Under the pieces are notes generated by a model that did no database searches, was not told the origin of the DNA, and saw only the letters and a list, made by a program, of their open reading frames with translations. 32,000 bases of DNA from Microcystis aeruginosa NIES-2549 (lineage in GTDB: Bacteria; Cyanobacteriota; Cyanobacteriia; Cyanobacteriales; Microcystaceae). Made by a program: the position numbers and the translations under genes. The stretch covers positions 60,001 to 92,000 of the forward strand of contig NZ_CP011304.1 of the NCBI RefSeq assembly GCF_000981785.2. Direction: 5' to 3'. This document shows, piece after piece, positions 5,199 through 32,000 of the stretch (positions are counted from its first letter, which is position 1; every line of letters begins with the position of its first letter).

Positions 5199-5545
5199 AG
5201 GATTTTTAGTTAAGTTAGATGACAGAAATTAAAGGAAAAAGTGACACTGTGATTGATATCTACAGCCAACAAACATCGACAAAATTTTAGGTAGATTAGA
5301 ATAAAAAATCATGAGTAAAATCTCGATGTTTACTTATTAAAACCATAGATTGCTTTCGAGGATTTTGATTTTAGACAATTAATGTTTTCCGAATATATTA
5401 CCTAGTATTGACTATATATTAAAATTGGTTTTTTGTCAAGATATTAGCTATTAATAAAAAAGAATAAGCACATTAATTTAATAAGTGAAAGTGATATATT
5501 TTCAGATGAAAATAATCAGATAAGATTTCTGACCAAGATAAATTG

Positions 5546-6856
5546 CTAATCATTGCGAATGTAAATATTTTGTTGCGGGAAGGGAATCTCGATACCCTGT
5601 TGAGTAAACCTAGCGAGAATAGCACAATTAATATCACTAATTACTCGCTTTTTTCTGTTGACATCATCCAACCAAAACTTTAATTCAAAGTTTAAACTAG
5701 AATCACCAAAATTAATAAAAAATGCTACTGGTTGCGGGTTTTTAAGTATGTGAGGATGTTGATCAGCAATGTCTAGTAATAAACTCATCACCTGTTGTGC
5801 GTTAGAATTATAACCAACTGCGATAACAATTGAACAATAAATCAAGTTATCACTACCCGTATAGGTGGTGACATCCTCAGTAAAAAACTTTTGATTGGGA
5901 ATAATTTTTTCGGAATTGTCCGTGAGTATTTGCACTGTTGTCGCTCGGATACCTAGCTTTTTTACCTGAGAAGTCTGTCCTTCAATATTAATTATATCAC
6001 CGGGTTTGAGAACTTTTTCAAATAATAGTAAAATCCCGCTAATAAAATTACTGACTACTTGCTGCATACCGAAACCAATACCCACCGATAAACCGCCAGT
6101 AATTGCCGCTATTGCTGTTGCATTAACTCCCACATAACCCAAGATGAGAATAAAACCTAAGACAATGAAAAAATAACGTCCTAAAAGTAAAGTTGCTTCA
6201 ATTTCACCGCGACTAGCTTGCTGATTTAAATTAGTAATACTCAGAATTATGCTCTCTATAAGAATAACAATAATTACCAGAAAATAGGGAGCTATTATCA
6301 AAATAAATATGCTTCTCAATGTGATCGGACTATTGAATAAATTAAAGGGAGATACTTGGGCAATTTCCTGAATATTATTGTAGAAACCAATCATGGTTCT
6401 CAGGAGGAATAATAGCAATAAAGGTGCTAAAAGCCGCCAATGATAATATTTAATTGTCTTGACGGAAAACTTGGCGTATAATCCAGCTAATAAACCACGA
6501 TAAACGAAATAAAACCACATTAGTTTTATCGATAAACTAATCATTCCTCTTGTCCAGTTTTGACCCAAAAAAATTAGATAACTTAAGTCAAGTAAAATTA
6601 GGCTAATAACTGGAAAATTAAGAAACTGTATCAGGATAGCAAAATATTGACGGAGGGTTAACTTTTCATCACTATGGATCAAACTGGTAACGTGAGGAAA
6701 TCTTTTTTCTAAGTAAGACCATAACCATTTTGATAATAACCAAGCAAGAATTAAAGACAGAAAAATGATCGTTAATTGATTTTGAACATTTCTGCGTCCT
6801 AAAAATAATAATTGGTTAGCAATTATCTCCGAAAGAGAGGGAATATTGTTGTTCAT
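5546..6856 (-). CDS. MscS-family mechanosensitive channel protein with extended N-terminal TM region
   Basis: 436-aa ORF with multiple TM helices followed by the MscS pore/beta-domain signature (ISGILLLFEKVLKPGDIINIEGQTSQVKKLGIRATTVQ). The start codon lies 1 nt after the stop of the upstream SBP gene (TAA T ATG). Confidence 0.85.
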   Translation of the reverse strand: MNNNIPSLSEIIANQLLFLGRRNVQNQLTIIFLSLILAWLLSKWLWSYLEKRFPHVTSLIHSDEKLTLRQYFAILIQFLNFPVISLILLDLSYLIFLGQNWTRGMISLSIKLMWFYFVYRGLLAGLYAKFSVKTIKYYHWRLLAPLLLLFLLRTMIGFYNNIQEIAQVSPFNLFNSPITLRSIFILIIAPYFLVIIVILIESIILSITNLNQQASRGEIEATLLLGRYFFIVLGFILILGYVGVNATAIAAITGGLSVGIGFGMQQVVSNFISGILLLFEKVLKPGDIINIEGQTSQVKKLGIRATTVQILTDNSEKIIPNQKFFTEDVTTYTGSDNLIYCSIVIAVGYNSNAQQVMSLLLDIADQHPHILKNPQPVAFFINFGDSSLNFELKFWLDDVNRKKRVISDINCAILARFTQQGIEIPFPQQNIYIRND

Positions 6857-6857
6857 A

Positions 6858-8150
6858 TTAATTTATTTTCCTGACTTCCTGATCAATATCTGATTGAATA
6901 TAAAGTGTCAGTTTTTCGGCTGCTGCTGAGGGAGATATTTCACCAGCGATCGCTCTTTCATACCAAAATTCTCCTTGTTCTAAAATTTTATTCAACTTTT
7001 CCCAATCATCCAGAGGAACTGCCACGGCATTTTGAGATTGTTGTAATAATACTGATTCAGTTGGTAGTAATTTTCCTTCGATCTGCACCCGTCGATTAGT
7101 GGGAATAAAACTTTCGGTTTGGGTGATTGCTTGTAATTGTTGTTCGGGATTAGTGAGAAATTTTCCTAAAGCTAATCCCAAACGATTTTCATTATCACTA
7201 TTATTGCGATTAAATACCATCACCCGTGTATAGAGAATTGGTGCTGCTTTACCTTGAGTTTCTTGGGGAAGTAAAGCGACTCTGAGATCATCTTGTAGGC
7301 TATTTTTTAAATCGGCAATTTCAATAGAACTACACACATAATAGGTTAAGCGGCCTCTAGCAAAGGCATCATGGAGTAATTCCCGTTGACGATTGAGGAT
7401 AAAATTAGGCTGTGACGAGGCAAATTTTAGCCATTCTAGCCATTTTGCCCAACCATATAGGCGAGGTTGCAGGCTACCCTGATCATCCCACAAATAGCCG
7501 CCAAAAATTGCCATTCCCCAAAAAGTATCTTCAAAAGAGGACACCATCCCCACAGAATAGCCTTTGCGCGCACGTTCCACTAATCCCTCTAAACTGGTGG
7601 GAGGTTGCTTCAGCAGCGGATCGGGACTAACTTGTAATTTTTTTTGATTATAACACAGTACATTGGTACGAGAACCCAAGGGAATGCCATAGATTTTTCC
7701 TTGATAGCTAACTTGTTTCAGCGTCGGGGGATAATAAATAGATAAATCTAGATTTTTCTGGTCAATTTCCTTCAGTACTCCTTGGGATACTAATCTGGGT
7801 ATATTTCTCGAAAAAATTAGAATAACACTCGCACCCAATCCGCTTTGAGATTGTTTAAAAAAACGTTCGGGTATCTCATCGATAGGAATAGCTTTTTCGA
7901 GAATTGTCACTTGCGGATTTAATTTTTCAAACTCTTGCAAACCCAGACCTAGTACTTCAGTTAAATTTCTCTCTTCTGGATACCAAACCGAGAGGGTTCC
8001 TTGCAGTTGCTCCGATGATTGAGTAGGAAGATAACTAAAACAGGCATAAAGAAAAATTGGCATCAAGATAAAAAGCAATAGGAGCGATATAATTCTCCTT
8101 ATTTTTTTACTTCCCCAAGCAGTTTTAACTTTGAGCCTTAGAAATTGCAT
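6858..8150 (-). CDS. extracellular solute-binding protein (ABC-type family-1 SBP fold), N-terminally anchored
   Basis: 430-aa ORF with an N-terminal TM/signal anchor (IISLLLLFILMPIFLYAC) and an SBP_bac_1-like body. No permease or ATPase genes are adjacent. Confidence 0.7.
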   Translation of the reverse strand: MQFLRLKVKTAWGSKKIRRIISLLLLFILMPIFLYACFSYLPTQSSEQLQGTLSVWYPEERNLTEVLGLGLQEFEKLNPQVTILEKAIPIDEIPERFFKQSQSGLGASVILIFSRNIPRLVSQGVLKEIDQKNLDLSIYYPPTLKQVSYQGKIYGIPLGSRTNVLCYNQKKLQVSPDPLLKQPPTSLEGLVERARKGYSVGMVSSFEDTFWGMAIFGGYLWDDQGSLQPRLYGWAKWLEWLKFASSQPNFILNRQRELLHDAFARGRLTYYVCSSIEIADLKNSLQDDLRVALLPQETQGKAAPILYTRVMVFNRNNSDNENRLGLALGKFLTNPEQQLQAITQTESFIPTNRRVQIEGKLLPTESVLLQQSQNAVAVPLDDWEKLNKILEQGEFWYERAIAGEISPSAAAEKLTLYIQSDIDQEVRKIN

Positions 8151-8607
8151 CGCTCGTGATCCTTCAAAAATCTTGCCATATATTCATAGTACATGAAAAG
8201 GTGAATAATAATCTTCATCAGAAAAATAATTAACATGATCTTTTGTCAAAAGCCCCCAGTATAGAAACAATTCCAGTTAAAAATTTGTGCGAGTTAAGCT
8301 GCTGACGTATCTAAATTACCTGTTACGTCCAGAACCCTATTTATAAATCTTTGTTAAGTACAATTTATACCAAATTGGGTGAGCTTCCCCTGCATACCAA
8401 ATAGGTTTTTAATAGTATGATTAACCACCGAGTTATGGATTATTTCTCCCCGCTCTCCTATACCTTTCAAATAGGATTTAGTATCAGTCCTCCTCATTTC
8501 CTCAAAATCTTTTCCCATTTGGGGCATTTAATCCCTCCTTTTCAAGGATAATTGGCTAGTGGCAATAAATATTAGGATGAGGTTCGGGATTTTGGGGAGG
8601 AGGGTAT

Positions 8608-10254
8608 TTAGTTAAATAATCTTTGCAGAAAAGTGCTTTGATCCCGCAGAAAAACCTGAGCGCAATTACGCCCCGGCATTCCCGAAATTGAGCCGCCGGG
8701 GTGAGTTCCTGCCCCAGTTAAATAAAGGTTTTTAATGGGGGTTTTGTAGTTAGCTATTTCCGGCAAAGGACGCAGGAAAATCATCTGATCTAAGGTCATA
8801 TCAAGATGATAGTAATTACCCTTATAGGAACCCAAACGATTAGCTAATTCGGCCGGACTTTCCACCCGACGAGCAATAATGGCGGATTTGAGATTGGGGG
8901 CATAATTGGCCAGTTTATCAAGAACTCGATCGGCCACGCGATTTTTTAATTCTTCCGTCCATCCCGTGCCGTTTAATCCCGTTCCCTCAGCCCCGGCAAT
9001 CTGATAGGGGGCAAAAAATTCGATCCAGAGGGTATGCTTGCCCTGGGGAGCCATGGAGGGATCGAGAATAGTGGGGACATCTAGGTACATCGAGGGATTT
9101 TCGTCGGGAATCTGCCCCAAAATCGTTAAAGCGTGGGCTTGTTCAACGTGACGCACGGAATCGGCGATGAGAATCGTTCCCTGTAAATACTCCTCTTTGT
9201 GATCATAAGCCTCGAACCTTGGCGCTTCGGCGAGGGCGCAGTCAATTTTAAGAATTGTTTCATTGTTATTGACAATTCGCCGTTCTACCCTTTCTCGCAA
9301 TTCCGGATCGGCGGCATCCACATCGGCGGAGGCGACTAACTGTAAAAAAACTCGTCTAGCGTCAATATTAGAGATAACACCCGCTTTGGCCAGATATTCC
9401 TGTCCAGAGTCCACCCTAACCCCGATCGCTTCTCCTTCCTCGATTAGAATCTGTTTAACTTTCTGCTCGGTTAAAATCACCCCACCGAGACTAACAACGC
9501 ATTTCACCAGAGCCTCGGTTAGTGCGCCCGTACCACCACGAGGGCGAGCCACCCCGGGGGAATGACGCATCGCCATCATCATCATCCCGGAGGTAATGCC
9601 TTTTTGGGAGGGAGGAGCGCCAATTTCCGCCGCTAGACGAGCCAGGGGTGCTTTGACAAATTCGCTTTCGAACCACTCATTAAGGACATCTTCGGGGGAA
9701 GTAATCATCGTGCGGATGAAGTCGAGCAGTTTCTTTTTCGAGCCGATCGCTTTCCAGACACTAGCTAAGGCACTAGAGTTATAATTGCGGGCGATTCTGA
9801 GCAAATCTTGGGGCGGAGCGTTAAACCAAGGACCGATCGCATTCATCAACTGCGCCCAATAGTCGATAAACTGAAGGTAGCGATCGGCATCTCGCGGACA
9901 AAACTGGGCAATTGCGGCGTGAGTTTTTTCCAGAGAGCGATAGGAAAGAAAATATTGGCCGGAGGGATGGGGACAGAAAACGGTAGGATCGAAGAATAAA
10001 TACTCTAATCCGTGCCGTTTTAGCTCTAATTCCTCAATTACTGGTCCCAAAAAGATAAATTCGTGATCGATCGCACAGAGATTAAACTTAAAATCGGGGG
10101 CTAGATCTGGGATAACCGCTTCTGTGGTAGCCGCTCCTCCTGGTACGCTACGCTGTTCCAGAAGGAGGACGCGATAACCAGCTTTGAGGAGATAGGCGGC
10201 ACAAACTAAACCATTATGCCCCGCACCGATGAGGATGACATCGTAACTTTCCAT
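8608..10254 (-). CDS. crtO: CrtI-family FAD-dependent oxidoreductase, CrtO-type beta-carotene ketolase
   Basis: 548-aa ORF with an N-terminal dinucleotide-binding motif (DVILIGAGHNGLVCAAYL). Its length and C-terminal GTHPGGSISGMPGRN motif fit CrtO-type ketolases such as Synechocystis Slr0088. Product-level assignment is from memory and was not searched. Confidence 0.65.
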   Translation of the reverse strand: MESYDVILIGAGHNGLVCAAYLLKAGYRVLLLEQRSVPGGAATTEAVIPDLAPDFKFNLCAIDHEFIFLGPVIEELELKRHGLEYLFFDPTVFCPHPSGQYFLSYRSLEKTHAAIAQFCPRDADRYLQFIDYWAQLMNAIGPWFNAPPQDLLRIARNYNSSALASVWKAIGSKKKLLDFIRTMITSPEDVLNEWFESEFVKAPLARLAAEIGAPPSQKGITSGMMMMAMRHSPGVARPRGGTGALTEALVKCVVSLGGVILTEQKVKQILIEEGEAIGVRVDSGQEYLAKAGVISNIDARRVFLQLVASADVDAADPELRERVERRIVNNNETILKIDCALAEAPRFEAYDHKEEYLQGTILIADSVRHVEQAHALTILGQIPDENPSMYLDVPTILDPSMAPQGKHTLWIEFFAPYQIAGAEGTGLNGTGWTEELKNRVADRVLDKLANYAPNLKSAIIARRVESPAELANRLGSYKGNYYHLDMTLDQMIFLRPLPEIANYKTPIKNLYLTGAGTHPGGSISGMPGRNCAQVFLRDQSTFLQRLFN

Positions 10255-10399: not shown

Positions 10400-10726
10400 A
10401 TGAGTTCTTCCATCAAAGTTATTCAACCATCGGGTATTTTAGATGGCAACCAAGCCAGCCAATTTCGCCAAGAAATTGCCGAAGCCGTGCGGGGAGGTTC
10501 AGAGGTTATTATCGTTGATTTCAAGGATGTCACCTTTATGGATAGTTCTGGTTTAGGGGCGCTAGTTTTATCCTTAAAAACCGTGCGTTCTGCGGGGGGT
10601 AAACTATTGATCTGCTCGATTAATGATCAGATAAAAATGTTATTTGAATTGACCGATATGGATCGAGTTTTTGAAATTTTTAATAACCGAGAAGAATTAG
10701 AACAAATAATCTCGGAAATTAATTAA
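10400..10726 (+). CDS. STAS-domain anti-sigma-factor antagonist (SpoIIAA/RsbV-like)
   Basis: 108-aa ORF with the typical STAS sequence, including the phosphorylatable-Ser region FMDSSGLGALV. Confidence 0.9.
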   Translation: MSSSIKVIQPSGILDGNQASQFRQEIAEAVRGGSEVIIVDFKDVTFMDSSGLGALVLSLKTVRSAGGKLLICSINDQIKMLFELTDMDRVFEIFNNREELEQIISEIN

Positions 10727-11859
10727 TAAAAATCCACCTGCATGATCGAAAGATCATCCTTAAAATTACCATCGAATTGTAAAGCTTGAATTTCTTCAAT
10801 AAAATTATTGAGATTTTTGGCGGAATTACAGTGATAATTTCGCAAAGATTGAATAAATTTCTCTAGTCCCCACATCCTACCATCAGCACAATCGATCTCG
10901 TAAATTCCATCGCTAAAAAGATAAAGGCTACTGGGTAAATTCAGGCATTTAACCTGATTAATATATTCCGCTTCTGGAAACATCCCGATGGGAAAACCGG
11001 GGGCTTTCAGTCTGGTTTCCATCACCTGGCCAAAAGGTTTTTGAGTCAGGAGAACTGCCGGGGGATGACCGGCACTGGCATAGGTTAACTGTTGTTGTTT
11101 CCGATCATAAATTCCGTACCAAATAGTAAAATATTTATCATTCCTAGGACTGATTTGATACACTTGATTTAACCCCTGTAAAACCTGATTAGGTTGATAG
11201 TAATTCACCTGACTTAAACCACGAGAACGGAGTAAATTAATCACCGAAAGAGAGGGTAAAGCCGCTCGCAAACCATGGCCCGCCACATCTAAAAGATATA
11301 ACACCAAATGGTCATTATCTAACCAATAATAATCAAAGCCATCCCCCCCCAATCGACGAGAAGGAAGGAAGCGAAAATCGATAGCAAGTTTTGGAGAAAT
11401 GAAAGGCTCTGGTAACAGCGATCGCACATATTCCGCCGCTTCCGCTAACTCCATTTCTAGTAATTGTTTTTGCGCTCGCAGATCATGACTTAATTGATGC
11501 AAACGCATTCCCGCCCGCACGCGCGCTCTTAACTCATTAATCTCGATCGGTTTACATAAAAAATCATCTGCCCCCGCATCCAATCCCTTCACCCGATCCC
11601 CCACCGATCCCAAAGAAGTTAAGAGGATAAAAAAAGTCGTTGACAGTTGGGGATTGAGCTTAATTTGCCGGCAAACTTCCAACCCATCGATCCCCGGCAT
11701 CATCCAATCACAAATAATCATCGCCGGTTTTATTTGCCCCGCTTGCTTTAATCCTTCTTCCCCATCACTGGCAACAAAAACCTCGTATTCCTTCTGCAAA
11801 GCGCGGCTCAAAAACGTTTGAATTACTCCATCATCATCAATTACTAGAATTCGTACCAT
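10723..11859 (-). CDS. response-regulator receiver domain fused to PP2C/SpoIIE-type Ser phosphatase (RsbU-like)
   Basis: 378-aa ORF with a REC domain (ILVIDDD...ICDWMMPGIDG...K) followed by a PP2C/SpoIIE region (GGDGFDY..., DVAGHG, FSDGIYE). Its 3' end overlaps the STAS gene 3' end by 4 nt (convergent). Confidence 0.9.
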   Translation of the reverse strand: MVRILVIDDDGVIQTFLSRALQKEYEVFVASDGEEGLKQAGQIKPAMIICDWMMPGIDGLEVCRQIKLNPQLSTTFFILLTSLGSVGDRVKGLDAGADDFLCKPIEINELRARVRAGMRLHQLSHDLRAQKQLLEMELAEAAEYVRSLLPEPFISPKLAIDFRFLPSRRLGGDGFDYYWLDNDHLVLYLLDVAGHGLRAALPSLSVINLLRSRGLSQVNYYQPNQVLQGLNQVYQISPRNDKYFTIWYGIYDRKQQQLTYASAGHPPAVLLTQKPFGQVMETRLKAPGFPIGMFPEAEYINQVKCLNLPSSLYLFSDGIYEIDCADGRMWGLEKFIQSLRNYHCNSAKNLNNFIEEIQALQFDGNFKDDLSIMQVDFY

Positions 11860-12029
11860 CTTTTTTGTGACTCGACTATCTCAATCTTACTGCTTACACT
11901 AGAGGGGAGTGGACGACTTTGCTTGTACCTCAAGACAGGATTAAATCCAGAATCGAGCTAATACATCAGTCATAGTTTGGGAAAAATGGTATAACTTCTA
12001 GCGTAAGGCATTGCAGAGGTAAACCGGGG

Positions 12030-12473
12030 GTGAAGATTTCTTTTCAGGTAGATAGCGATCTCAGGTCCTTAGATACCGTTTTAAAGTATTTTGAGCAACT
12101 CGAACCGGCGGGCATTCCCCAAAAAGACTGGCTCCAGTGTCAGCTTGCTCTTGCCGAAGGTTTTACCAATGCTGTCCGTCACGCTCACCGACACCTCCCC
12201 CCCGAAATCCCGATCGAGATCGAGATCGATATTACCCGATCCCAGATGGAACTTCGCATCTGGGATCGGGGTTCCGTCTTCGATTTAGAGGGCTTTATCG
12301 AGAAAAACGCCCATCTTCGCCATAGTTTCTCCGGTCATGGGCAAGGACTGCCGATCCTCCAAAAAATCGCCGATCAACTCAGTTATACTCGCAGCGAAGA
12401 TCAGCGCAACTGTCTGTTAATTATTAAACAATTTTCCCGCCATGAATCCGATCGCGCCCCTCGTTTCTCCTAG
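12030..12473 (+). CDS. anti-sigma regulatory factor / HATPase_c Ser-protein kinase (RsbW/SpoIIAB-like)
   Basis: 147-aa ORF with a GTG start and GAGG about 10 nt upstream. It has an N-box (EGFTNAVRHA) and a G-box (GHGQGLPIL). Confidence 0.85.
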   Translation: MKISFQVDSDLRSLDTVLKYFEQLEPAGIPQKDWLQCQLALAEGFTNAVRHAHRHLPPEIPIEIEIDITRSQMELRIWDRGSVFDLEGFIEKNAHLRHSFSGHGQGLPILQKIADQLSYTRSEDQRNCLLIIKQFSRHESDRAPRFS

Positions 12474-13674: not shown

Positions 13675-14226
13675 ATGACAGAAGCCGGTCTTTGTCATTG
13701 TAATGGTGGCACCCGTCCGAAAGATCGCCTTTCGATTTTTGTGGATGGCAATAATATGTTTTATGCTCAACAAAAAAATGGTTGGTTTTTTGACCCGCGC
13801 AAGGTGTTAAATTACTTCACTAATGACCCGAATATTATGTTAATTAATGCCTTTTGGTACACGGGTTTAAAAGATTCCCAAGATCAAAGAGGTTTTCGCG
13901 ATGCTTTAATTAGTTTGGGTTATACGGTGAGAACAAAAATTTTGAAAGAATATTATGATGATAGTTCCGGTCGTTTTTCTCAGAAAGCTAATTTAGATAT
14001 CGAAATTGTCGTCGATATGTTTAATACCGTCGATCAATACGATCGAGTGATTTTATTTAGTGGTGATGGCGATTTTGAACGAGCGATCGAACTATTGCGC
14101 TCTAAAAATACTCATATTACCGTAGTTTCTACGGAAGGGATGATCGCTAGGGAATTGCGAAATGCCACCGATCGCTATATTGACCTGAATGATCTTCGCA
14201 AAGATATCGAAAAAAGTGATTATTAA
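13675..14226 (+). CDS. NYN-domain (LabA/DUF88-like) protein, predicted RNase fold
   Basis: 183-aa ORF with LabA-type NYN motifs: RLSIFVDGNNMFYA, DIEIVVDM and ILFSGDGDFERAIELL. Confidence 0.8.
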   Translation: MTEAGLCHCNGGTRPKDRLSIFVDGNNMFYAQQKNGWFFDPRKVLNYFTNDPNIMLINAFWYTGLKDSQDQRGFRDALISLGYTVRTKILKEYYDDSSGRFSQKANLDIEIVVDMFNTVDQYDRVILFSGDGDFERAIELLRSKNTHITVVSTEGMIARELRNATDRYIDLNDLRKDIEKSDY

Positions 14227-15550: not shown

Positions 15551-16735
15551 ATGCTACGTTTTTCTCTCGGTTTATGGCTCTGTTTGATCGGTACTTCCCT
15601 TCCTCTCCTAGCACAAACAGAAACCCCTGCACCCAATCCCCTCGAAACTCCCTTAAAAAGTCCTTTATTACCCGCAATCGATCGCCCTTTAACTCCCTTG
15701 GAGCGTCGTCAACTGTTATTATACATCGATCAACGCGATGCTGAAGCTCAAGCTAAATACGATGCGGGATTAAATGAGGAAGCTTTTCCCATCTGGTATG
15801 AAGTGATTAAATTAAATCGTTATTTAGGGGCCAAAGAAGAAGTAAAATCTTTGGGAAAAGTGGGGTTAGCCGCTTGGAATCGAGATCGAACCGAGGATGT
15901 TAAATTAATTACTGCTCGTTTAAAATCTCTGCAACAAACCGCAGAAACTAACCAGACAATGGACGGGGAATTATTAGCATTACTAGGTACATCCTATCAA
16001 CAGGTACGAGCTTTTAATGAGGCGATAATCATCTATGATCAAATTCTAGCTAATGCCAGACAATCTGGAGATAACGACGCAGTAGAAGCAACTCTAAATC
16101 AACTTGGTCAAATTCATTTATCCCGTTTTGATTATCAAAAAGCCGCCCCAGTATATGAGGAATTATTAACTATTTCTAAGGGGCAGAATAATTCTTTAAC
16201 TCAAGGAATTTATTTGCAAAGACTAGCAGAAATTTATCGAGAATCTTTGCAACCAGCTAACGCAGTAAAAATTAAAGAAGAAATAGCTGAAACCCAGATC
16301 AGAAATCAGCAAATACAGTTAATTCCCGCTCTAAAAATTCAAATTGGTTTAGATTACCAAGCTTTAAAAGATGCAAATAAAGCCAGCCAAAACTTTCAAG
16401 AAGCCTATTCTCTCGCTTTTGCTTTACAACAGTACGGCACCGCAGGAGAAGCTTTAAATAAGTTGGCAGAACTTTATAAAAGTTATCAACAGGTAGATTA
16501 TGCCCTACAAATCTATCAAGAACTAATTAAAGTCCATGAATTGGGTTATAATTACTACGGTTTAATGAACACCTACGATCAAATCGGTCAAATTTATCTA
16601 GAGAGAAAAAATTATCCCCAAGCTTTACTCGCTTTCCAAAAAGGTGCGGAATTAGCCCAAGCTATCCGTTATCGTGAACAATATTTTCAAACCCAAATCA
16701 CCCAAGTTAATCAAGCAATAAATAATCCTGAATAG
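15551..16735 (+). CDS. secreted TPR-repeat protein
   Basis: 394-aa ORF with a signal peptide (LCLIGTSLPLLAQTE) and multiple 34-aa TPR-like repeats (A..Y..AL.I...). Confidence 0.75.
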   Translation: MLRFSLGLWLCLIGTSLPLLAQTETPAPNPLETPLKSPLLPAIDRPLTPLERRQLLLYIDQRDAEAQAKYDAGLNEEAFPIWYEVIKLNRYLGAKEEVKSLGKVGLAAWNRDRTEDVKLITARLKSLQQTAETNQTMDGELLALLGTSYQQVRAFNEAIIIYDQILANARQSGDNDAVEATLNQLGQIHLSRFDYQKAAPVYEELLTISKGQNNSLTQGIYLQRLAEIYRESLQPANAVKIKEEIAETQIRNQQIQLIPALKIQIGLDYQALKDANKASQNFQEAYSLAFALQQYGTAGEALNKLAELYKSYQQVDYALQIYQELIKVHELGYNYYGLMNTYDQIGQIYLERKNYPQALLAFQKGAELAQAIRYREQYFQTQITQVNQAINNPE

Positions 16736-18798: not shown

Positions 18799-20487
18799 AT
18801 GAAAAGAAAAGAGCTTAAAATCGGTCGCCGCTATTCTGGCAAATCCTGGCAAATATTTGTAATTATTGCCTTCATCGCCGCCGCTCCCTTCGCTATTTTT
18901 TATCTGATTGCCTTGGCTTATCTTTGGCAAGGCGATCAACTTTTGGCCGCGGGGGAGAAGGAATCGGCTCTGTCTGCTTACCAAACAGTTTTATCTTTTC
19001 ACGAAAATTCAGTCCAAGCCCATATAAAAATCGCTCAGGTCTTACAAAGTCAAAAACGCTATTCTGAAGCCTTACAAGCATATAATCGTGGCTTTATCAT
19101 TAATGATAAACCACCGATGGAACCCTCCCTAAGTAATCATTTAGTCGCTTTGGGAGATATTTTCGCCCAAGAGGAAAAATGGTCAGAGGCGATCGATGCT
19201 TACCAAAAAGCAATGATCATTAAACCAACTTTTAAAGGGCAATTTCAGCTAGGAAAAGCCCTTTATAGTTTACAACGTTGGGATGAGGCGGCGAAAGCTC
19301 TGCAAGCAGCGGTTTTTCTCGATCCTAGTCAGGGAAAAGCCTATTTTTATCTGGGAAAGGCCTACAGTGAACAGCAACTCTGGCAAGAGGCCAGTTATGC
19401 CTATCAGCAAGCTCTAGAATTGATACCTAGTCAGGGTGAAATATACAAAAAATTAGGAGAAACCCTAGCAAAACAGGGAAAATGGGAGCAAGCAGAGCAA
19501 ATATATCGACAGGCTCTAATTTACTCCCCTAAAGATGGGGATATTTATAATTATTTAGGGAAAGCTTTAGCGGAACAGGGAAAACTAGGGGAAGCCATGG
19601 CAGTTTTTCAACAGGCACGCCAAATTAGCCCCAAAAATGCCGAGATTTACGAAAATCTCTGTTATACCTATATCGATAGTGGTCAGATCGATGAGGGTCT
19701 AAATTGGTGTCGGCAGGCCGTAGAAATTGATCCCAATTTATCAGAAGCTAGATTTATTTTACAGGAAATCCAACGGGGGCGATTAATTCACGACAATCCC
19801 GAATTATTAAAAATGCCAGAGATAATTCCCAGTGTTAACAGTGATCCTCTGGTGAATTTAAAACGCTCAATTGTTAAAATTGTCATTCGCGGCAAAAATA
19901 ACAATGGGATCGGCACTGGTTGGTTATTAAAACGAGATCAAGATAGAGCTTGGATCGTGACTAACCGTCATGTGGTGACGAATTCCCGTCAGGAAATCGA
20001 TGCAGGAGCGCGCATTTTTGTCGAGTATTATAGCCAACCCCCCCAGGGAAAAATTCGCAAGCGTTCAAAAGCTAAAATTCTCCACACTACCCCCCCTAAC
20101 GATTGGCTCGATTTAGCAGTATTAGAGGTAAAAAATCCCCCGCCAGATTTAAAACCTTTAGCTTTAGCACCCCTACCAATTGCCCCTAATCAACCGGTAA
20201 TCTCGATCGGTAATCCTTTTAATCAAAAAGATTGGACTGTCAGCAAAGGCACGGTTAATGATAATAACGAAAAATCCTTAAGTTTGTCCATGTTTGTCGT
20301 TTCTGGACAGTCGGGAAGTCCAGTTTTAAACGATAAAAATCAAGTGGTGGGAGTGATTTCCCAAGCGAGTTTATTTTGTGATAATCCCTCCACTCCTAAA
20401 CCCCTAGAAAATGCCGTTAGATTGGGCTGCGGTTTAGCGATTCCCATTGACAGAGTGCGAGAAAGGTTAAGGGAGTGGCAATTATAA
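18799..20487 (+). CDS. membrane-anchored TPR-repeat protein with C-terminal trypsin-like (S1/S1C) serine peptidase domain
   Basis: 562-aa ORF with an N-terminal TM helix (WQIFVIIAFIAAAPFAIFYLIALAYLW) and about 8 TPRs. The C-terminal domain has an apparent triad in TNRHVV (His), DLAVLEV (Asp) and GQSGSPVLN (Ser). Confidence 0.85.
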   Translation: MKRKELKIGRRYSGKSWQIFVIIAFIAAAPFAIFYLIALAYLWQGDQLLAAGEKESALSAYQTVLSFHENSVQAHIKIAQVLQSQKRYSEALQAYNRGFIINDKPPMEPSLSNHLVALGDIFAQEEKWSEAIDAYQKAMIIKPTFKGQFQLGKALYSLQRWDEAAKALQAAVFLDPSQGKAYFYLGKAYSEQQLWQEASYAYQQALELIPSQGEIYKKLGETLAKQGKWEQAEQIYRQALIYSPKDGDIYNYLGKALAEQGKLGEAMAVFQQARQISPKNAEIYENLCYTYIDSGQIDEGLNWCRQAVEIDPNLSEARFILQEIQRGRLIHDNPELLKMPEIIPSVNSDPLVNLKRSIVKIVIRGKNNNGIGTGWLLKRDQDRAWIVTNRHVVTNSRQEIDAGARIFVEYYSQPPQGKIRKRSKAKILHTTPPNDWLDLAVLEVKNPPPDLKPLALAPLPIAPNQPVISIGNPFNQKDWTVSKGTVNDNNEKSLSLSMFVVSGQSGSPVLNDKNQVVGVISQASLFCDNPSTPKPLENAVRLGCGLAIPIDRVRERLREWQL

Positions 20488-27587: not shown

Positions 27588-28082
27588 TTAATGATCATTG
27601 TCTAATTCTGTTTTTAGCCAATTAAGAATCGGAGAACTAATACGAATTCCATAATTAACTAACTGTTGTGATAAATCTAAAATTTCTTGTTTAGATAGAT
27701 AACCTGCATAAAAACCAACCAAGAGAATTCCTAATGTTCCTTTGACGGTTAATTCCATAGCTTTGGCAACTCTTCTTGCTAATTTCTCATCTATAATTAC
27801 CCAGTCTAGTTTAATTGAAATTGCCAAGAGAATAACTTCTAATTCTCCTCGATCTAATCCTAGTAATAGCGGTTCAAGAGGAGATGATGATGCAACTTCT
27901 TGAACTTGAATCCAATTGGCATTTTTGAGTTCTTTTGCCCCCGGTTTATTATCTCCAGCGATGACAATTTCTTGATAAACTGCCCAAGGAATAATCACTT
28001 CATTAAATAGCTGATTAAGAAGATCTAATTGATTAATCAAAGATAAGGCGATGATCGGTGTAGAATTAACAATTATCTTCAT
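27588..28082 (-). CDS. DUF3368 / PIN-like predicted nucleic-acid-binding protein (putative toxin)
   Basis: 164-aa ORF whose N-terminus (IIVNSTPIIALSLINQLDLLNQLF...VIIPWAVYQEI) is typical of COG2405/DUF3368. It overlaps the upstream UPF0175 gene by 17 nt. Confidence 0.75.
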   Translation of the reverse strand: MKIIVNSTPIIALSLINQLDLLNQLFNEVIIPWAVYQEIVIAGDNKPGAKELKNANWIQVQEVASSSPLEPLLLGLDRGELEVILLAISIKLDWVIIDEKLARRVAKAMELTVKGTLGILLVGFYAGYLSKQEILDLSQQLVNYGIRISSPILNWLKTELDNDH

Positions 28083-28356
28083 TCTCTTGGATTTTTTGGG
28101 CTAATTTACGGCTGGTTTGTATTTCTGATTCCCATTCTTCTGCTGTGTAATCAATAATGGAAAAACCATACTCAGAGAGAAGTGTATAAAATGTATATTT
28201 ATCGCATCCTAATACTTGTGCGCCAATTCCTGCTGAAATTTTTCCTTCTTGATAAAGATGCCCTAATGTATAAATTATGACTTTACGAGAGAATGCTTCT
28301 TTTTCTTCTCTGGCAGCAATGAGGAGTTCTTCGGGAAATGTTACATTAATGCTCAT
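28066..28356 (-). CDS. UPF0175 family protein (putative antitoxin paired with DUF3368)
   Basis: 96-aa ORF. LYQEGKISAGIGAQVLGCDKYTFYTLLSEYG is typical of UPF0175 (COG2886). Confidence 0.75.
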   Translation of the reverse strand: MSINVTFPEELLIAAREEKEAFSRKVIIYTLGHLYQEGKISAGIGAQVLGCDKYTFYTLLSEYGFSIIDYTAEEWESEIQTSRKLAQKIQENEDNC

Positions 28357-28438: not shown

Positions 28439-28708
28439 CTATATTGTTCTCTTTAGTTGTTTATAAATTTCATCATCGTTTCGTTTGTCAATCAGCAAGA
28501 TTTCTAGTGTTTGCTCCTCAACACGATAAACGATTCGATATTCACCAATATCGGCTCTATGATAGGAGTATCCTTTTAACTTTAGAGAATCTTGGGGATA
28601 GGGATTTGTTCTCAGTTCGGTTATTTTTGTGGCTACTTGTTTGGCGTGTTTATCTGGCAGTTTTTTTAAGCGTTTAGTTGCCTGTCGAGATAGGTTAATC
28701 TTAAGCAT
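28439..28708 (-). CDS. RelE/ParE-family type II toxin
   Basis: 89-aa ORF containing ...LKGYSYHRADIGEYRIVYRVEEQTLEILLIDKRNDDEIY, typical of the RelE/ParE superfamily. Its ATG overlaps the Phd stop (ATGCTTAA, 8-nt overlap). Confidence 0.85.
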   Translation of the reverse strand: MLKINLSRQATKRLKKLPDKHAKQVATKITELRTNPYPQDSLKLKGYSYHRADIGEYRIVYRVEEQTLEILLIDKRNDDEIYKQLKRTI

Positions 28709-28949
28709 TTAAAATTTCTGACAGTAAAGCCTCACTTTCTGTTGTTCCGATAAAACCTTCTTGATGAGCTTTTTCTGCCTGTAAAGCCAAAAGTTGATTT
28801 TCTAACTCGGAAAATCTCTCAAATTCCTCGATTGACAGCACGACTGCAACATTACGTCCCTTTTTTGCTATCTTTACTGGTTCTCTTCGAGCCAAGTCTA
28901 ACAGTTCGCCAAAGCGATTTTTTGCTTCTGAGGCTCCTAATGTTTTCAT
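28701..28949 (-). CDS. Phd/YefM-family type II antitoxin
   Basis: 82-aa ORF with the N-terminal Phd/YefM signature (SEAKNRFGELLDLARREPVKIAKKGRNVAVVLSIEEFE). Confidence 0.85.
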   Translation of the reverse strand: MKTLGASEAKNRFGELLDLARREPVKIAKKGRNVAVVLSIEEFERFSELENQLLALQAEKAHQEGFIGTTESEALLSEILNA

Positions 28950-29016: not shown

Positions 29017-32000
29017 TCACCGCCACCAGCGGCTGACTTCTCTAATTGCTTGATGGATTTCTCTTAAAGCGACCTCTCCCCCAAAATGAAGGATTAAAGG
29101 CGCTAAGTTGGGAATAGTTTCGAGGAAATTAGGACGAGTGAGAGTACCCAAAGCCTGAAGGACATCTTGCCAGAAAGATAAGTCAACATTAGCAGGGGTT
29201 AAGGTGGCTGTTAATGCTTCTAATGCCTCTGCACGAGATTCTTCAGACCCAATCCCTCTGGCAATTTCTAAGGCTTCGGGTAACACTTCAGGTAAATGGG
29301 GAGCTAACCGTGTCAATGCCCTTGCACGCAAGTATTCATACTCAATCCCTCTGGCAATTTCTAAGGCTTCGGGTAACACTTCCGGTAAATGGGGAACTAA
29401 ATTGGTCAATGCCCATGCACGGTTATCTTCATCCCTAATCCCTCTGGCAACCGCTAAAGCTTCGGGTAACAAACTGACCGGTAAATGGGGAGCTAACTCT
29501 CTCAATGCCTCTGCACGGTTATCTTCATCCCTAATCCCTCTGGCAACCGCTAAAGCTTCGGGTAACACTTCCGGTAAATAGGGAGCTAACCCTGTCAATG
29601 CCCTTGCACGGTAGTATTCAGACCCAATCCCTCTGGCAATTTCTAAGGCTTCGGGTAACACTTCCGGTAAATAGGGAGCTAACCCGGTCAATGCCCTTGC
29701 ACGGTAGTATTCATACCCAATCCCTCTGGCAATTTCTAAGGCTTCGGGTAACAAACTTTCCGGTAAATGGGGAGCTAACTCTCTCAATGCCTCTGCACGG
29801 TAACGGTAGGACAAAATCCCTCTGGCAATTTCTAAGGCTTCAGGTAATAAACTGGGCAAATGGGGAGCTAACCCTGTCAATGCCCTTCCACGGTCGTATT
29901 TATCCCAAATGGCTCTGGCAATTTCTAAGGCTTCGGGTAACACTTCAGGTAAATAGGGAGCTAACCCTGTCAAGGCTTCTGCACGAGAAAATTTATCGTC
30001 AATGACTCTGGCAAGTTCTAAGGCTTCGGGTAACACTTCAGGTAAATAGGGAGCTAACCCGGTCAATGCCCTTGCACGGTAGTATTCATCCCTAATCCCT
30101 CTGGCAACCGCTAAAGCTTCGGGTAACAAACTGACCGGTAAATAGGGAGCTAACCCGGTCAATGCCTCTGCACGGTCGTATTCATCCCTAATCCCTCTGG
30201 CAATTTCCAAGGCTTCGGATAACACTTCGGGTAAATAGGGAGCTAACCCGGTCAATGCCCTTGCACGGAAGTCTTCAACCCGAATCCCTCTGGCAGCTTC
30301 TAAGGCTTCGGGTAACAAACTTTCCGGTAAATAGGGAGCTAACCCTGTCAATGCCCTTGCACGGAAGTTTTCAACCCGAATCCCTCTGGCAGCTTCTAAA
30401 GCTTCGGGTAACACTTCCGGTAAATAGGGAGCTAACCCGGTCAATGCCCTTGCACGGTAGTATTCATACCCAATCCCTCTGGCAATTTCTAAGGCTTCGG
30501 GTAACACTTCCGGTAAATAGGGAGCTAACCCGGTCAATGCCCAAGCACGGTTGTATTCATACCCAATCCCTCTGGCAACTTCTAAGGCTTCGGGTAACAC
30601 TTCAGGTAAATGAGGAACTAACTCAGTCAATGCCCATGCACGGTCAGATTTATCCCCAATCCCTCTGGCAATTTCTAAGGCTTCGGATAACAAAGTAGAA
30701 GTAAGATAGGGACTAATTGCTGTTAATCCTCCGGCTTGCTTCTCAGAATCTGGATTTTGCCGTACATAAGCCAAACCCTGAGCAGGTGTCCAGATTTCAT
30801 GTTTAATCAGTGCCGCAATTAATTCTGGTGGAATATTAGTCGCCAAACTATTAAGAGAAGTGGTGATTAAAGCATAACGCACCTGTAACCCCATAGACTC
30901 ACTCTTGTTCTCAATAAAATGCTCCTCCGCCAGTTGCCAAGCCCGGGAAACATCCTTAATAAAAACTGCTGTTTTCCCTTCCCTTTCACATTGACTATAC
31001 CAACCATTATGACCTTCTGCGGTTTCTTCCCTCAGTAATAGATGAATCTGGGCTATCTGTCCCGCTTTTTCCAAATGCCAGAGCAATTGATTATAAATAT
31101 AGCCATCATCCTCTAAACTGTGCCAATTTGATCCCCCTAAATCCCCCTTACTAAGGGGGACTTCCACCTCTTTTCCCCCCTTTTCAAGGGGGGTTAGGGG
31201 GGATCTCTCCTTTTCAAGGGGGGTTAGGGGGGATATCTCCTTTTCAAGGGGGGTTAGGGGGGATATCTTAATTTGTCTTTGATACCGTTGTAAAAGTTGC
31301 CCATGCGCTTCAGAAATCGACAAACCTAACCCCGGTAATCGATAATCCGTTTCAGTATTAGGAGACGCTAGGATCAGATTTCGGGCTAAATCATGTAACA
31401 AATCATGGACCCGATAACTCGTTAATAGTTCACTAGAAACCCCCGTTAATAATAAAGCTTTACCCCGTAAATATCTTAAAGTTTGCCTCGCTTCTCTAAC
31501 CGGACAATCCCATAAAGTCGTCGCCATTTTTTCGGTAATGGTAACATCATCGGGTAACACCCCTAACCAGCTAAATTGTCTCAATCTTTGCCCATTTAAC
31601 CGCTTTAAACTGAGATTAAAGCAAGCAATTAAACTATAATGTTTTCGTTTTTCTTCATTGACAGTATCTCCAGCTTCCAAGCGATCTAAAATTTCTAAAT
31701 GAGCGATTTCTGCTCGTAAATCTTCGATTAATTCAGCCCAAGGAATCCCATCTTCAATTTGTGCCGCCGTCAACTCCAAAGCTAAGGGTAAATAACCGAC
31801 AATTTTGGCTAATATTTTGGCTTGTTTCTGATCTGCTAAATTTAATTCATGCTTTAAATAACCCGTTAATAAGGCTAAAGATTGGCTTTCCGTCATCACA
31901 TTCAAATCATAACGAATTGCTCCTTTAACGGGAACTTCCCTAGTGGTTACTAATAATTTACATTGATTTACTGCTACTCTAAAAGGATCAATATCTTCCA
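29017..32000 (-). CDS. NB-ARC (APAF-1/R-protein type) STAND NTPase, 5'-truncated by the window edge, with a C-terminal array of 31-32-aa alpha-solenoid repeats
   Basis: The frame stays open upstream of the track's TTG 'start' at 31905, to the window end (...EDIDPFRVAVNQCKLLVTTREVPVKGAIRYDLNVMTESQSLALL). NB-ARC motifs seen: LLVTTR (sensor-1/RNBS-B), GYLPLAL (GLPL/GxP) and VHDLLHDLA (MHD-like). A helical HD2-like region (DDGYIYNQLLWHLEKAG) follows, then 16 repeats and a 58-aa unique tail. Confidence 0.85.
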   Translation of the reverse strand, partial: EDIDPFRVAVNQCKLLVTTREVPVKGAIRYDLNVMTESQSLALLTGYLKHELNLADQKQAKILAKIVGYLPLALELTAAQIEDGIPWAELIEDLRAEIAHLEILDRLEAGDTVNEEKRKHYSLIACFNLSLKRLNGQRLRQFSWLGVLPDDVTITEKMATTLWDCPVREARQTLRYLRGKALLLTGVSSELLTSYRVHDLLHDLARNLILASPNTETDYRLPGLGLSISEAHGQLLQRYQRQIKISPLTPLEKEISPLTPLEKERSPLTPLEKGGKEVEVPLSKGDLGGSNWHSLEDDGYIYNQLLWHLEKAGQIAQIHLLLREETAEGHNGWYSQCEREGKTAVFIKDVSRAWQLAEEHFIENKSESMGLQVRYALITTSLNSLATNIPPELIAALIKHEIWTPAQGLAYVRQNPDSEKQAGGLTAISPYLTSTLLSEALEIARGIGDKSDRAWALTELVPHLPEVLPEALEVARGIGYEYNRAWALTGLAPYLPEVLPEALEIARGIGYEYYRARALTGLAPYLPEVLPEALEAARGIRVENFRARALTGLAPYLPESLLPEALEAARGIRVEDFRARALTGLAPYLPEVLSEALEIARGIRDEYDRAEALTGLAPYLPVSLLPEALAVARGIRDEYYRARALTGLAPYLPEVLPEALELARVIDDKFSRAEALTGLAPYLPEVLPEALEIARAIWDKYDRGRALTGLAPHLPSLLPEALEIARGILSYRYRAEALRELAPHLPESLLPEALEIARGIGYEYYRARALTGLAPYLPEVLPEALEIARGIGSEYYRARALTGLAPYLPEVLPEALAVARGIRDEDNRAEALRELAPHLPVSLLPEALAVARGIRDEDNRAWALTNLVPHLPEVLPEALEIARGIEYEYLRARALTRLAPHLPEVLPEALEIARGIGSEESRAEALEALTATLTPANVDLSFWQDVLQALGTLTRPNFLETIPNLAPLILHFGGEVALREIHQAIREVSRWWR
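29194..30714 (-). repeat. intragenic tandem array: 16 units of 93 or 96 bp (31-32 aa; consensus EALEIARGI-xxxxx-RAxALTGLAPYLPEVLP)
   Basis: Units were counted from the translation (residues about 398-904 of the track ORF). A 106-nt perfect duplicate occurs at 29648-29753 and 30401-30506 (offset 753 nt = 8 units). Confidence 0.95.
31177..31266 (-). repeat. three tandem 30-bp G6-rich units inside the STAND ORF (encoding ISPLTPLEKE x3), adjacent to a 19-nt palindrome at 31142-31160
   Basis: Plus-strand units at 31177-31206, 31207-31236 and 31237-31266. The last two are identical (ctccttttcaaggggggttaggggggatat) and the first differs at 2 positions. Confidence 0.9.

Follow-up and report, generated by a model that had tools for sequence, protein, structure and literature searches.

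The 32,000-nucleotide stretch of Microcystis aeruginosa NIES-2549 DNA analysed here (NZ_CP011304.1, positions 60,001 to 92,000; hereafter the window, in whose own numbering all coordinates are given) ends inside a gene on the minus strand, at 29017..32000. Its visible part, a partial coding sequence of 993 codons and a stop, belongs to an NB-ARC protein of the STAND, or NLR-like, kind, the N-terminus of which lies past the window end. Within this open reading frame (ORF), still open at the window end, there is an array of 16 tandem units of 93 or 96 nt (29185..30684, minus strand). We describe the anatomy of the protein, its predicted fold, the distribution of variability along the repeat, the polymorphism of its alleles and its synteny, and propose that the array is probably the ligand-sensing arm of an immune or cell-death protein, diversified by recombination between its units.

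The NB-ARC protein and its relatives

The C-terminal two thirds of the NB-ARC module occupy 31369..32000 (minus strand), as judged from motifs in the translation, NCBIfam and Foldseek. The translation contains LLVTTR (31939-31956), GYLPLALE as the 'GLPL' motif (31774-31797) and VHD as the 'MHD' motif (31402-31410), all on the minus strand. NB-ARC regions of AfsR/FxSxx-type proteins in NCBIfam match aa 9-209, and Foldseek aligns this part with Apaf-1 (3shf). Walker A (GLGGIGKST) and Walker B (LLVVDD) are found in homologues 93-80% identical to the protein, their sites lying here just outside the window; the homologue P0009 is matched by the Pfam NB-ARC model with E = 8e-18. Taken together, the window and the homologues hold the full set of NB-ARC STAND motifs (Walker A/B, RNBS-B, GLPL, MHD), and sequence supports the assignment of the host protein to the NLR-like STAND NTPases.

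Beyond the NB-ARC module comes a linker that AlphaFold2 predicts to be disordered (aa 246-288, window 31135-31263), followed by a helical domain seen in the translation and the AlphaFold2 model (aa 289-438, 30685..31134), the array itself and a C-terminal cap that is modelled as two long helices and ends in ...VSRWWR (aa 939-993, 29020..29184), all on the minus strand. Inside the linker, Tandem Repeats Finder (TRF) identifies an in-frame 30-bp mini-repeat in three copies (SPLTPLEKE..., 31179..31268, minus strand), unrelated to the main array. Its copy number and period differ among alleles, with one to four copies elsewhere and a 63-nt spacing in locus L002. The idea that it is a dispersed element found no support: it is confined to this gene in the window and in the loci that we fetched.

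The protein database holds hundreds of relatives. The closest come from Microcystis, led by strain NIES-87 at 93% identity, and farther ones from Moorena, Nostoc, Tolypothrix, Scytonema, Crocosphaera and Leptothoe. Full-length Microcystis homologues (1100-1677 aa) consist of a trypsin-like protease, NB-ARC, the helical domain, the array and the C-terminal cap. They thus show a tripartite effector, nucleotide-binding oligomerisation domain (NOD) and repeat architecture, made of a trypsin-like domain (PF13365/PF00089), NB-ARC and 5-28 repeats. The catalytic triad of the protease is recognisable in homologues, with His in TCRHLF, Asp in DIALVEL and Ser in GTSGSA. In relatives from other genera, precomputed Pfam assignments give EAD (PF19959) or caspase (PF00656) in place of trypsin; a PP2C match (PF00481) also occurs in some Microcystis homologues.

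The repeat array

The limits of the array were set by our own segmentation, anchored on the EAL..AR motif, together with TRF, which reports a period of 93 nt, 15.5 copies and 84% matches (score 1836) at 29242-30692. A first-pass annotation of the same DNA, made from the sequence, had placed the array at 29194-30714; those positions cover it but lie some 10-30 nt off at each end. The array corresponds to aa 439-938 of the visible protein. Its units encode 31/32-aa two-helix repeats with the consensus EALEIARGIGDEYYRARALTGLAPYLPE-VLP: 12 of the 16 have 31 residues, and the other four reach 32 through an extra serine at column 29, which accounts for the annotated toggling in length (LPE-VLP versus LPESLLP or LPVSLLP). 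A degenerate half unit ahead of the array, GLTAISPYLTSTLLS, forms the last 15 residues of the helical domain, and the final unit merges gradually into the 55-aa helical cap.

Pairwise identity among units 1-15 averages 74% at the amino-acid and 84% at the nucleotide level. The mean identity of the units to the consensus, 0.80, exceeds the Psim of at least 0.7 by which repeats of high internal conservation (HIC) are recognised. This similarity is unevenly distributed: framework columns are 86% identical among units, and the eight variable columns (10-14, 17, 20 and 21) 39%. Entropy per column reaches 1.0-2.4 bits in columns 10-14, 1.5 in column 17 and 0.9-1.6 in columns 20-21; it is zero at E1, A2, L3, A6, R7, I9, R15, A18, L19, L22 and L26. 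These peaks fall where the first-pass annotation had seen differences cluster, namely in the five residues after ARGI, in the middle residue of RA[R/E/W]AL and after AL, and the pentapeptides that it listed after ARGI are all correct.

Units 3 and 11, reported earlier to encode the same peptide, are identical in DNA as well. They are contained in the perfect 106-nt duplicate that had been noted 753 nt apart and that proves exact: one copy, at 29648..29753, covers unit 11, and the other, at 30401..30506, comprises unit 3 with a few flanking bases (both minus strand). The identity ends there on both sides; this unit-sized duplicate is a duplication or conversion tract.

Three plus-strand ORFs of 125-147 aa run antisense to the array (29204-29581, 29598-30005 and 30255-30698) and are themselves repetitive; they are by-products of the repeat and no genes. 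The unit itself is matched by no Pfam or NCBIfam model. DUF4644 and ELYS gave sub-threshold, spurious matches only and were discarded.

Predicted fold and position of the variable residues

An AlphaFold2 model built on a 67-sequence alignment reached a predicted local distance difference test score (pLDDT) of 81.6 and a predicted template modelling score (pTM) of 0.70. In each modelled unit, helix A spans columns 27 to 7, a four-residue loop columns 8-11 and helix B columns 12-25. Foldseek places HEAT solenoids (karyopherins, mTOR, SF3B1) and designed helical repeats at the top of its PDB matches, the best natural ones being HEAT proteins. By sequence, a PDB search with the array returned designed helical repeats only and no natural sequence, and none of the HEAT, ARM and TPR families of Pfam appeared at E <= 1. 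The units thus have the form of HEAT repeats, about 30-40 aa with two antiparallel helices stacking into an alpha-solenoid, and match no curated HEAT or TPR sequence model. Since the HEAT resemblance comes from Foldseek and no such model matches, we call the array HEAT-like by fold and not by sequence family; it is predicted to be a HEAT-like alpha-solenoid.

The variable columns correspond to the end of the loop and to positions i, i+1, i+4, i+7 and i+8 of helix B. Weighted by entropy, this helix has a helical moment of 0.43 (permutation P = 0.00035), and the invariant residues R15, A18, L19, L22 and L26 lie on the face opposite the variable columns. The first-pass annotation had proposed to map the variable sites onto a predicted solenoid; judged by helical phase, they gather in the loop and along a single side of helix B, and with the solenoid geometry they would form one surface stripe.

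The variable columns are the same ones across 1656 units from 120 proteins. The residue at columns 13 and 14 is Y, S, D, N, H or F in about 80% of cases, a restricted alphabet that looks binding-site-like rather than the product of free drift.

Homogenisation and reshuffling among alleles

We obtained further alleles via the neighbouring ParE gene; the genome-collection scan gave six loci, several of them ending inside the array. Across 43 complete Microcystis proteins, the number of units varies from 5 to 28. Alleles occupying the same slot in closed genomes display unrelated unit orders, with runs of identical neighbouring units. The comparison between strains that had been suggested earlier thus reveals polymorphism of both unit number and unit order at one locus, a further mark of HIC repeats.

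Several short-read draft assemblies have contigs that end inside or beside the array (L004, L006/L007 and L008), which makes unit counts unreliable where they are taken from drafts or metagenomes. One metagenome contig, L009, carries a split gene with five units.

Within the window, one single codon is used in 16/16 units at eight framework columns, including those of the six-fold degenerate Arg and Leu. Framework identity is 0.77-0.94 within an array against 0.60-0.77 between genera, the within-array value being higher in nearly every comparison. Such figures support the homogenisation of units by what appears to be concerted evolution. The patches, for their part, recur: of 854 Microcystis units, 593 are distinct, with 284 different five-residue patches among them, and 12 of the 14 patches of the window are found again in other alleles, which points to a shared cassette pool.

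The closest allele, that of NIES-87 (L001), also has 16 units, in the same order as in the window. The two arrays differ at 23 nucleotides, all within 5 of the 16 units (clustering P < 1e-5), and over the remaining 11 units, about 1 kb in all, identity is 100%. Eleven of the 12 replacements fall in variable columns; the ratio of nonsynonymous to synonymous differences (pN/pS) is 0.81 in variable columns, as against 0.15 for framework columns and 0.44 for sequence beyond the array. Units 3, 6 and 11 differ at unit nucleotides 31-60 only, and linked synonymous changes are among these differences. We infer that short conversion tracts fit these differences better than independent point mutations.

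Divergence from NIES-87 changes along the gene. Adjacent non-repeat coding sequence differs by 3-7%, and the NB-ARC part (31153-31998) is 94.7% identical (5.3% different) and equally far from strain KW; the segment 28061-31222 as a whole is 98.2% identical. A divergent tract over unit 16 and the C-cap has 19 differences in about 260 nt. With identical units set between flanks diverged by 3-7% or 5.3%, the gene is thus a mosaic made by recombination, and the pattern indicates recombination breakpoints inside it.

Selection on the repeat units

Selection was gauged with pooled Nei-Gojobori counts and with a parsimony count in the manner of single-likelihood ancestor counting (SLAC) on a neighbour-joining tree built from 119 unique units; both are rough and ignore recombination. 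The ratio of nonsynonymous to synonymous rates (dN/dS) by Nei-Gojobori is 1.12-1.13 in variable columns (1.13 in the five-residue patch) and 0.51 in the rest; parsimony gives 1.06 to 1.14 against 0.56. Per-site entropy and dN/dS, which the first-pass annotation had named as a check, hence agree that changes are unequally spread, with a ratio of about 1.1 in variable columns and about 0.55 elsewhere. Purifying selection is significant at seven framework columns in the parsimony count. Synonymous change is raised too in columns 13-14, and variable codons tend to an NNY/NNG look, positions 1-2 changing and position 3 being kept. Heterogeneity of selection between sites is strong; positive selection is not demonstrated.

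Genomic context

In syntenic loci, a Trypco2 gene stands upstream of the NLR-like gene, and a PhD/ParE pair, UPF0175 and DUF3368 follow downstream. Trypco2 (PF19631, E = 5e-24) is directly upstream in all five gene-bearing syntenic loci (L002, L009, L010, L014 and L017). These loci thus have the adjacency of a Pepco/Trypco2-protease module; in the source strain, the corresponding site is past the window end. The conserved downstream flank is present in the window, all on the minus strand: PhD/YefM antitoxin (28701-28949), ParE toxin (28439-28708), UPF0175 (28066-28356) and DUF3368 (27588-28082).

PhD and ParE occur in every strain examined whatever fills the slot, and UPF0175-DUF3368 in most. 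In other strains more toxin-antitoxin (TA) genes follow (HEPN/NTase, HicAB, PIN), which gives the region the behaviour of a defence/TA island. In some strains the NLR gene is missing from the slot; COP23 and a CHAT (caspase-like) protease gene take its place there, or these are absent too. We compared six NLR-lacking loci: L011, L012, L013, L015, L018 (about 5200-9700) and L016. In five of them a remnant of about 90 aa, corresponding to the last unit and the C-cap, persists upstream of PhD, with a match limited to the last 33 residues in L013. Trypco2 is retained in the three CHAT-cassette loci that were translated, its C-terminal tail being replaced (...IKIPLSFCQ). From the C-cap remnant and the retained Trypco2, it looks as if the NLR system is ancestral and has been lost in part from these strains by deletion.

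Elsewhere in the window, a 562-aa ORF (18799-20487, plus strand) having TPRs at the N-terminus and a Trypsin_2 domain at the C-terminus encodes a second protease-plus-repeat protein. A TPR protein lies at 15551-16735 and an NYN-domain protein at 13675-14226. A partner-switching module (10400-12473) comprises a STAS anti-anti-sigma protein (10400-10726, plus strand), a response-regulator/SpoIIE PP2C phosphatase (10723-11859, minus strand) and a HATPase_c_2 anti-sigma kinase (12030-12473, plus strand).

Discussion

We now propose, at a probability of roughly two in three, that the array is the ligand-sensing arm of a Microcystis NLR-like immune or cell-death protein and is diversified by recombination of its units. 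The 31/32-aa units, each of two antiparallel helices, would stack as a HEAT-like alpha-solenoid around a core of invariant residues (A2, L3, A6, I9, A18, L19, L22, L26 and others). The A-B loop (columns 10-11) and a face of helix B (columns 13, 14, 17, 20, 21 and 25) would then make up an uninterrupted exposed stripe with many Tyr, Asp, Ser and Asn residues, and this stripe is the putative binding surface. Given the DNA identity of about 84% between units, the array may be subject to unequal crossing-over and to gene conversion in short tracts. Such recombination would homogenise the framework in concerted evolution, alter unit number and carry variable patches between units and alleles, so that each strain would have a different sensor surface drawn from a shared cassette pool.

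The later steps, namely the ligand, the activation of the protease and the Pepco effector, we infer by analogy with Avs and other STAND proteins. A ligand, most likely a phage protein, would bind the solenoid and cause oligomerisation of NB-ARC; this would gather the N-terminal trypsin-like protease domains, which may cleave the neighbouring Trypco2/Pepco protein, and the cleaved product would form a membrane pore and kill the infected cell. In Streptomyces Avs4 with a fused trypsin-like protease, Pepco (Trypco1/2) is reported to be a beta-barrel pore activated when the STAND-fused protease removes its C-terminus (2025 preprint, PMC12642450).

Several points weigh against this proposal. The window itself contains no protease domain, no Walker motifs and no Trypco2 gene, and PADLOC v2 holds no model for the protein family. 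The surface stripe is derived from helical phase and solenoid geometry. No column stands significantly above a dN/dS of 1 in the parsimony count, and the ratio of about 1.0-1.1 for variable columns together is likewise not significantly above 1. Finally, in NIES-87 (L001 1-400) the first 36 or so protease residues, catalytic His included, are replaced by unrelated sequence, with stop codons in the part preceding LFDNSNDCKV; as this closest allele lacks the catalytic His, the window copy could be an inactive relic.

The alternative that we take most seriously, and still judge unlikely, is that the array is scaffolding or a structural solenoid, its variable sites being unconstrained surface and its homogenisation mechanical, with no adaptive diversification. 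The dN/dS of variable columns is what neutrality would predict, with no column significant, and the elevated synonymous change in columns 13-14 agrees with it as well. However, free drift is hard to reconcile with the narrow alphabet of the variable columns, with their location on one helical face, and with their being the same across genera that are about 50% identical overall. Nor would it readily concentrate nearly all of the NIES-87 replacements in those columns while 11 units stay unchanged. The position of the array, moreover, is that of the sensor domain in characterised STAND/NLR proteins.

Recombination in a sensor may also be carried further than we propose: the array could be a programmed diversification device, in which short conversion tracts directed at the 30-nt variable patch, along with unit shuffling, turn over sensor specificity on the ecological timescale of bloom seasons. 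We regard this as rather improbable. If true, a Microcystis population would hold an NLR sensor repertoire made from a few hundred cassettes, and the system would be, in an innate immune receptor, a bacterial counterpart of cassette-based receptor diversification like that of variable lymphocyte receptors (VLRs) or of antigenic variation.

Another reading, to which we give a small chance, keeps the sensor and changes its ligand: like fungal het NLRs, it would serve kin recognition or allorecognition among Microcystis genotypes in colonies, and not the detection of phage. Extreme polymorphism between strains and presence or absence at one locus would suit such a role, Microcystis does form colonies, and the function has been raised for diversified STAND sensors of multicellular bacteria (PMC10907252). 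On the other hand, those Pepco-protease modules that have been characterised to date react to phage proteins, and no partner polymorphic locus has been identified; the present data do not discriminate kin from phage ligands.

It is very improbable that the array, or the count and order of its units, arose by expansion or collapse in assembly, a worry voiced in the first-pass annotation. Draft assemblies do break in the array, and the split five-unit gene of L009 would fit an artefact, but the independent NIES-87 assembly repeats the 16 units of the window in unchanged order, the closed chromosomes CP116295, CP046973 and CP134413 carry intact arrays of some 17-20 recognisable units, and the ORF is uninterrupted. 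We reject the writing of the variable patch by a diversity-generating retroelement (DGR) through adenine-specific mutagenic retrohoming: the NNY/NNG codons with changes at positions 1-2, and the diversification of STAND sensors by DGRs in multicellular bacteria (PMC10907252), recall it, but the 21 scanned ORFs of the window (at least 100 aa) and the syntenic loci contain no reverse transcriptase, there is no off-array template copy in the window or, at other loci, in flanks of up to 10 kb on each side, known DGRs target one variable region in a C-type-lectin or Ig fold rather than 16-28 tandem units, and most patches are common to several alleles, as fits cassette shuffling.

As a proposed sensor diversified by unit recombination, the Microcystis protein has a close parallel in the fungal HIC NLRs (HET-E/D, NWD; Paoletti 2007; Dyrka 2014, PMC4986451; Ament-Velasquez 2026, PMC13449251), with WD40, ANK, TPR or HEAT repeats. 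Both have the effector/NOD/repeat architecture, repeats about 80% identical to their consensus, polymorphism of repeat number between strains, and a few hypervariable positions on one repeat face, with reshuffling proposed as the source of diversity. Unlike them, the Microcystis protein is bacterial, with a 31/32-aa HEAT-like unit that has no Pfam model and with a fused trypsin-like protease; it lacks repeat-induced point mutation (RIP) or any other fungal context, and positive selection is not demonstrated in it. Concerted evolution plus diversification as in fungal NLRs, the mechanism first suggested for this array, is largely supported, through homogenisation and unit shuffling; positive selection, with dN/dS near 1, is not proven. 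The analogy is apt, though already drawn in the literature for bacterial NLRs.

Bacterial HIC NLR-like proteins are indeed described from cyanobacteria and actinobacteria (Dyrka/Daskalov 2020, bioRxiv 10.1101/2020.01.06.895854; Marold 2015 for a 42-residue TPR-like repeat; Hu 2017 for WD40). They share multicellular or colonial hosts, NB-ARC or NACHT with self-similar repeats, and a proposed rapid diversification. Those surveys deal with WD40, TPR, ANK and LRR; the Microcystis repeat is HEAT-like, and its allele polymorphism is documented at one syntenic locus. Avs proteins with Pepco/Trypco-protease modules (Gao 2022; PMC12642450; Kaur 2020, PMC7159879) likewise combine a STAND NTPase with an N-terminal trypsin-like protease, an adjoining small Trypco2/Pepco gene and a C-terminal helical repeat domain as sensor. 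Characterised Avs sensors are conserved, TPR-like and recognise conserved phage proteins, whereas the Microcystis sensor is hypervariable, strain-specific and not in PADLOC v2. To the Apaf-1/CED-4 AP-ATPases the protein is linked by the NB-ARC fold with TTR, GLPL and MHD and by the Foldseek match to Apaf-1; it differs in having a HEAT-like solenoid for WD40 propellers and a protease that is fused, not CARD-recruited.

The principle is therefore known, having been published for fungal NLRs and for bacterial NLRs with WD40 and TPR repeats. New are a Pfam-less, HEAT-like repeat family and a well-populated, strain-level allele series at one syntenic locus. The 2026 HIC survey drew on SMART annotations and set HEAT-type repeats explicitly aside (PMC13449251); having no domain model, the Microcystis family would thus have been missed. 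According to the same survey, whether the mechanism operates and gives an adaptive benefit outside fungi remains to be seen. With many natural alleles at a single syntenic locus, this becomes directly testable.

Surveys built on domain models overlook whole repeat families, as illustrated by the Microcystis unit, which has no Pfam model and is absent from PADLOC. The 31-residue unit with its defined variable stripe is also a ready-made natural scaffold for binder engineering.

Microcystis, a cause of toxic blooms in fresh water, faces heavy pressure from phages. A reshuffling, strain-specific sensor on an NLR armed with a protease would provide a concrete example, in bacteria, of receptors that diversify by the shuffling of repeats.

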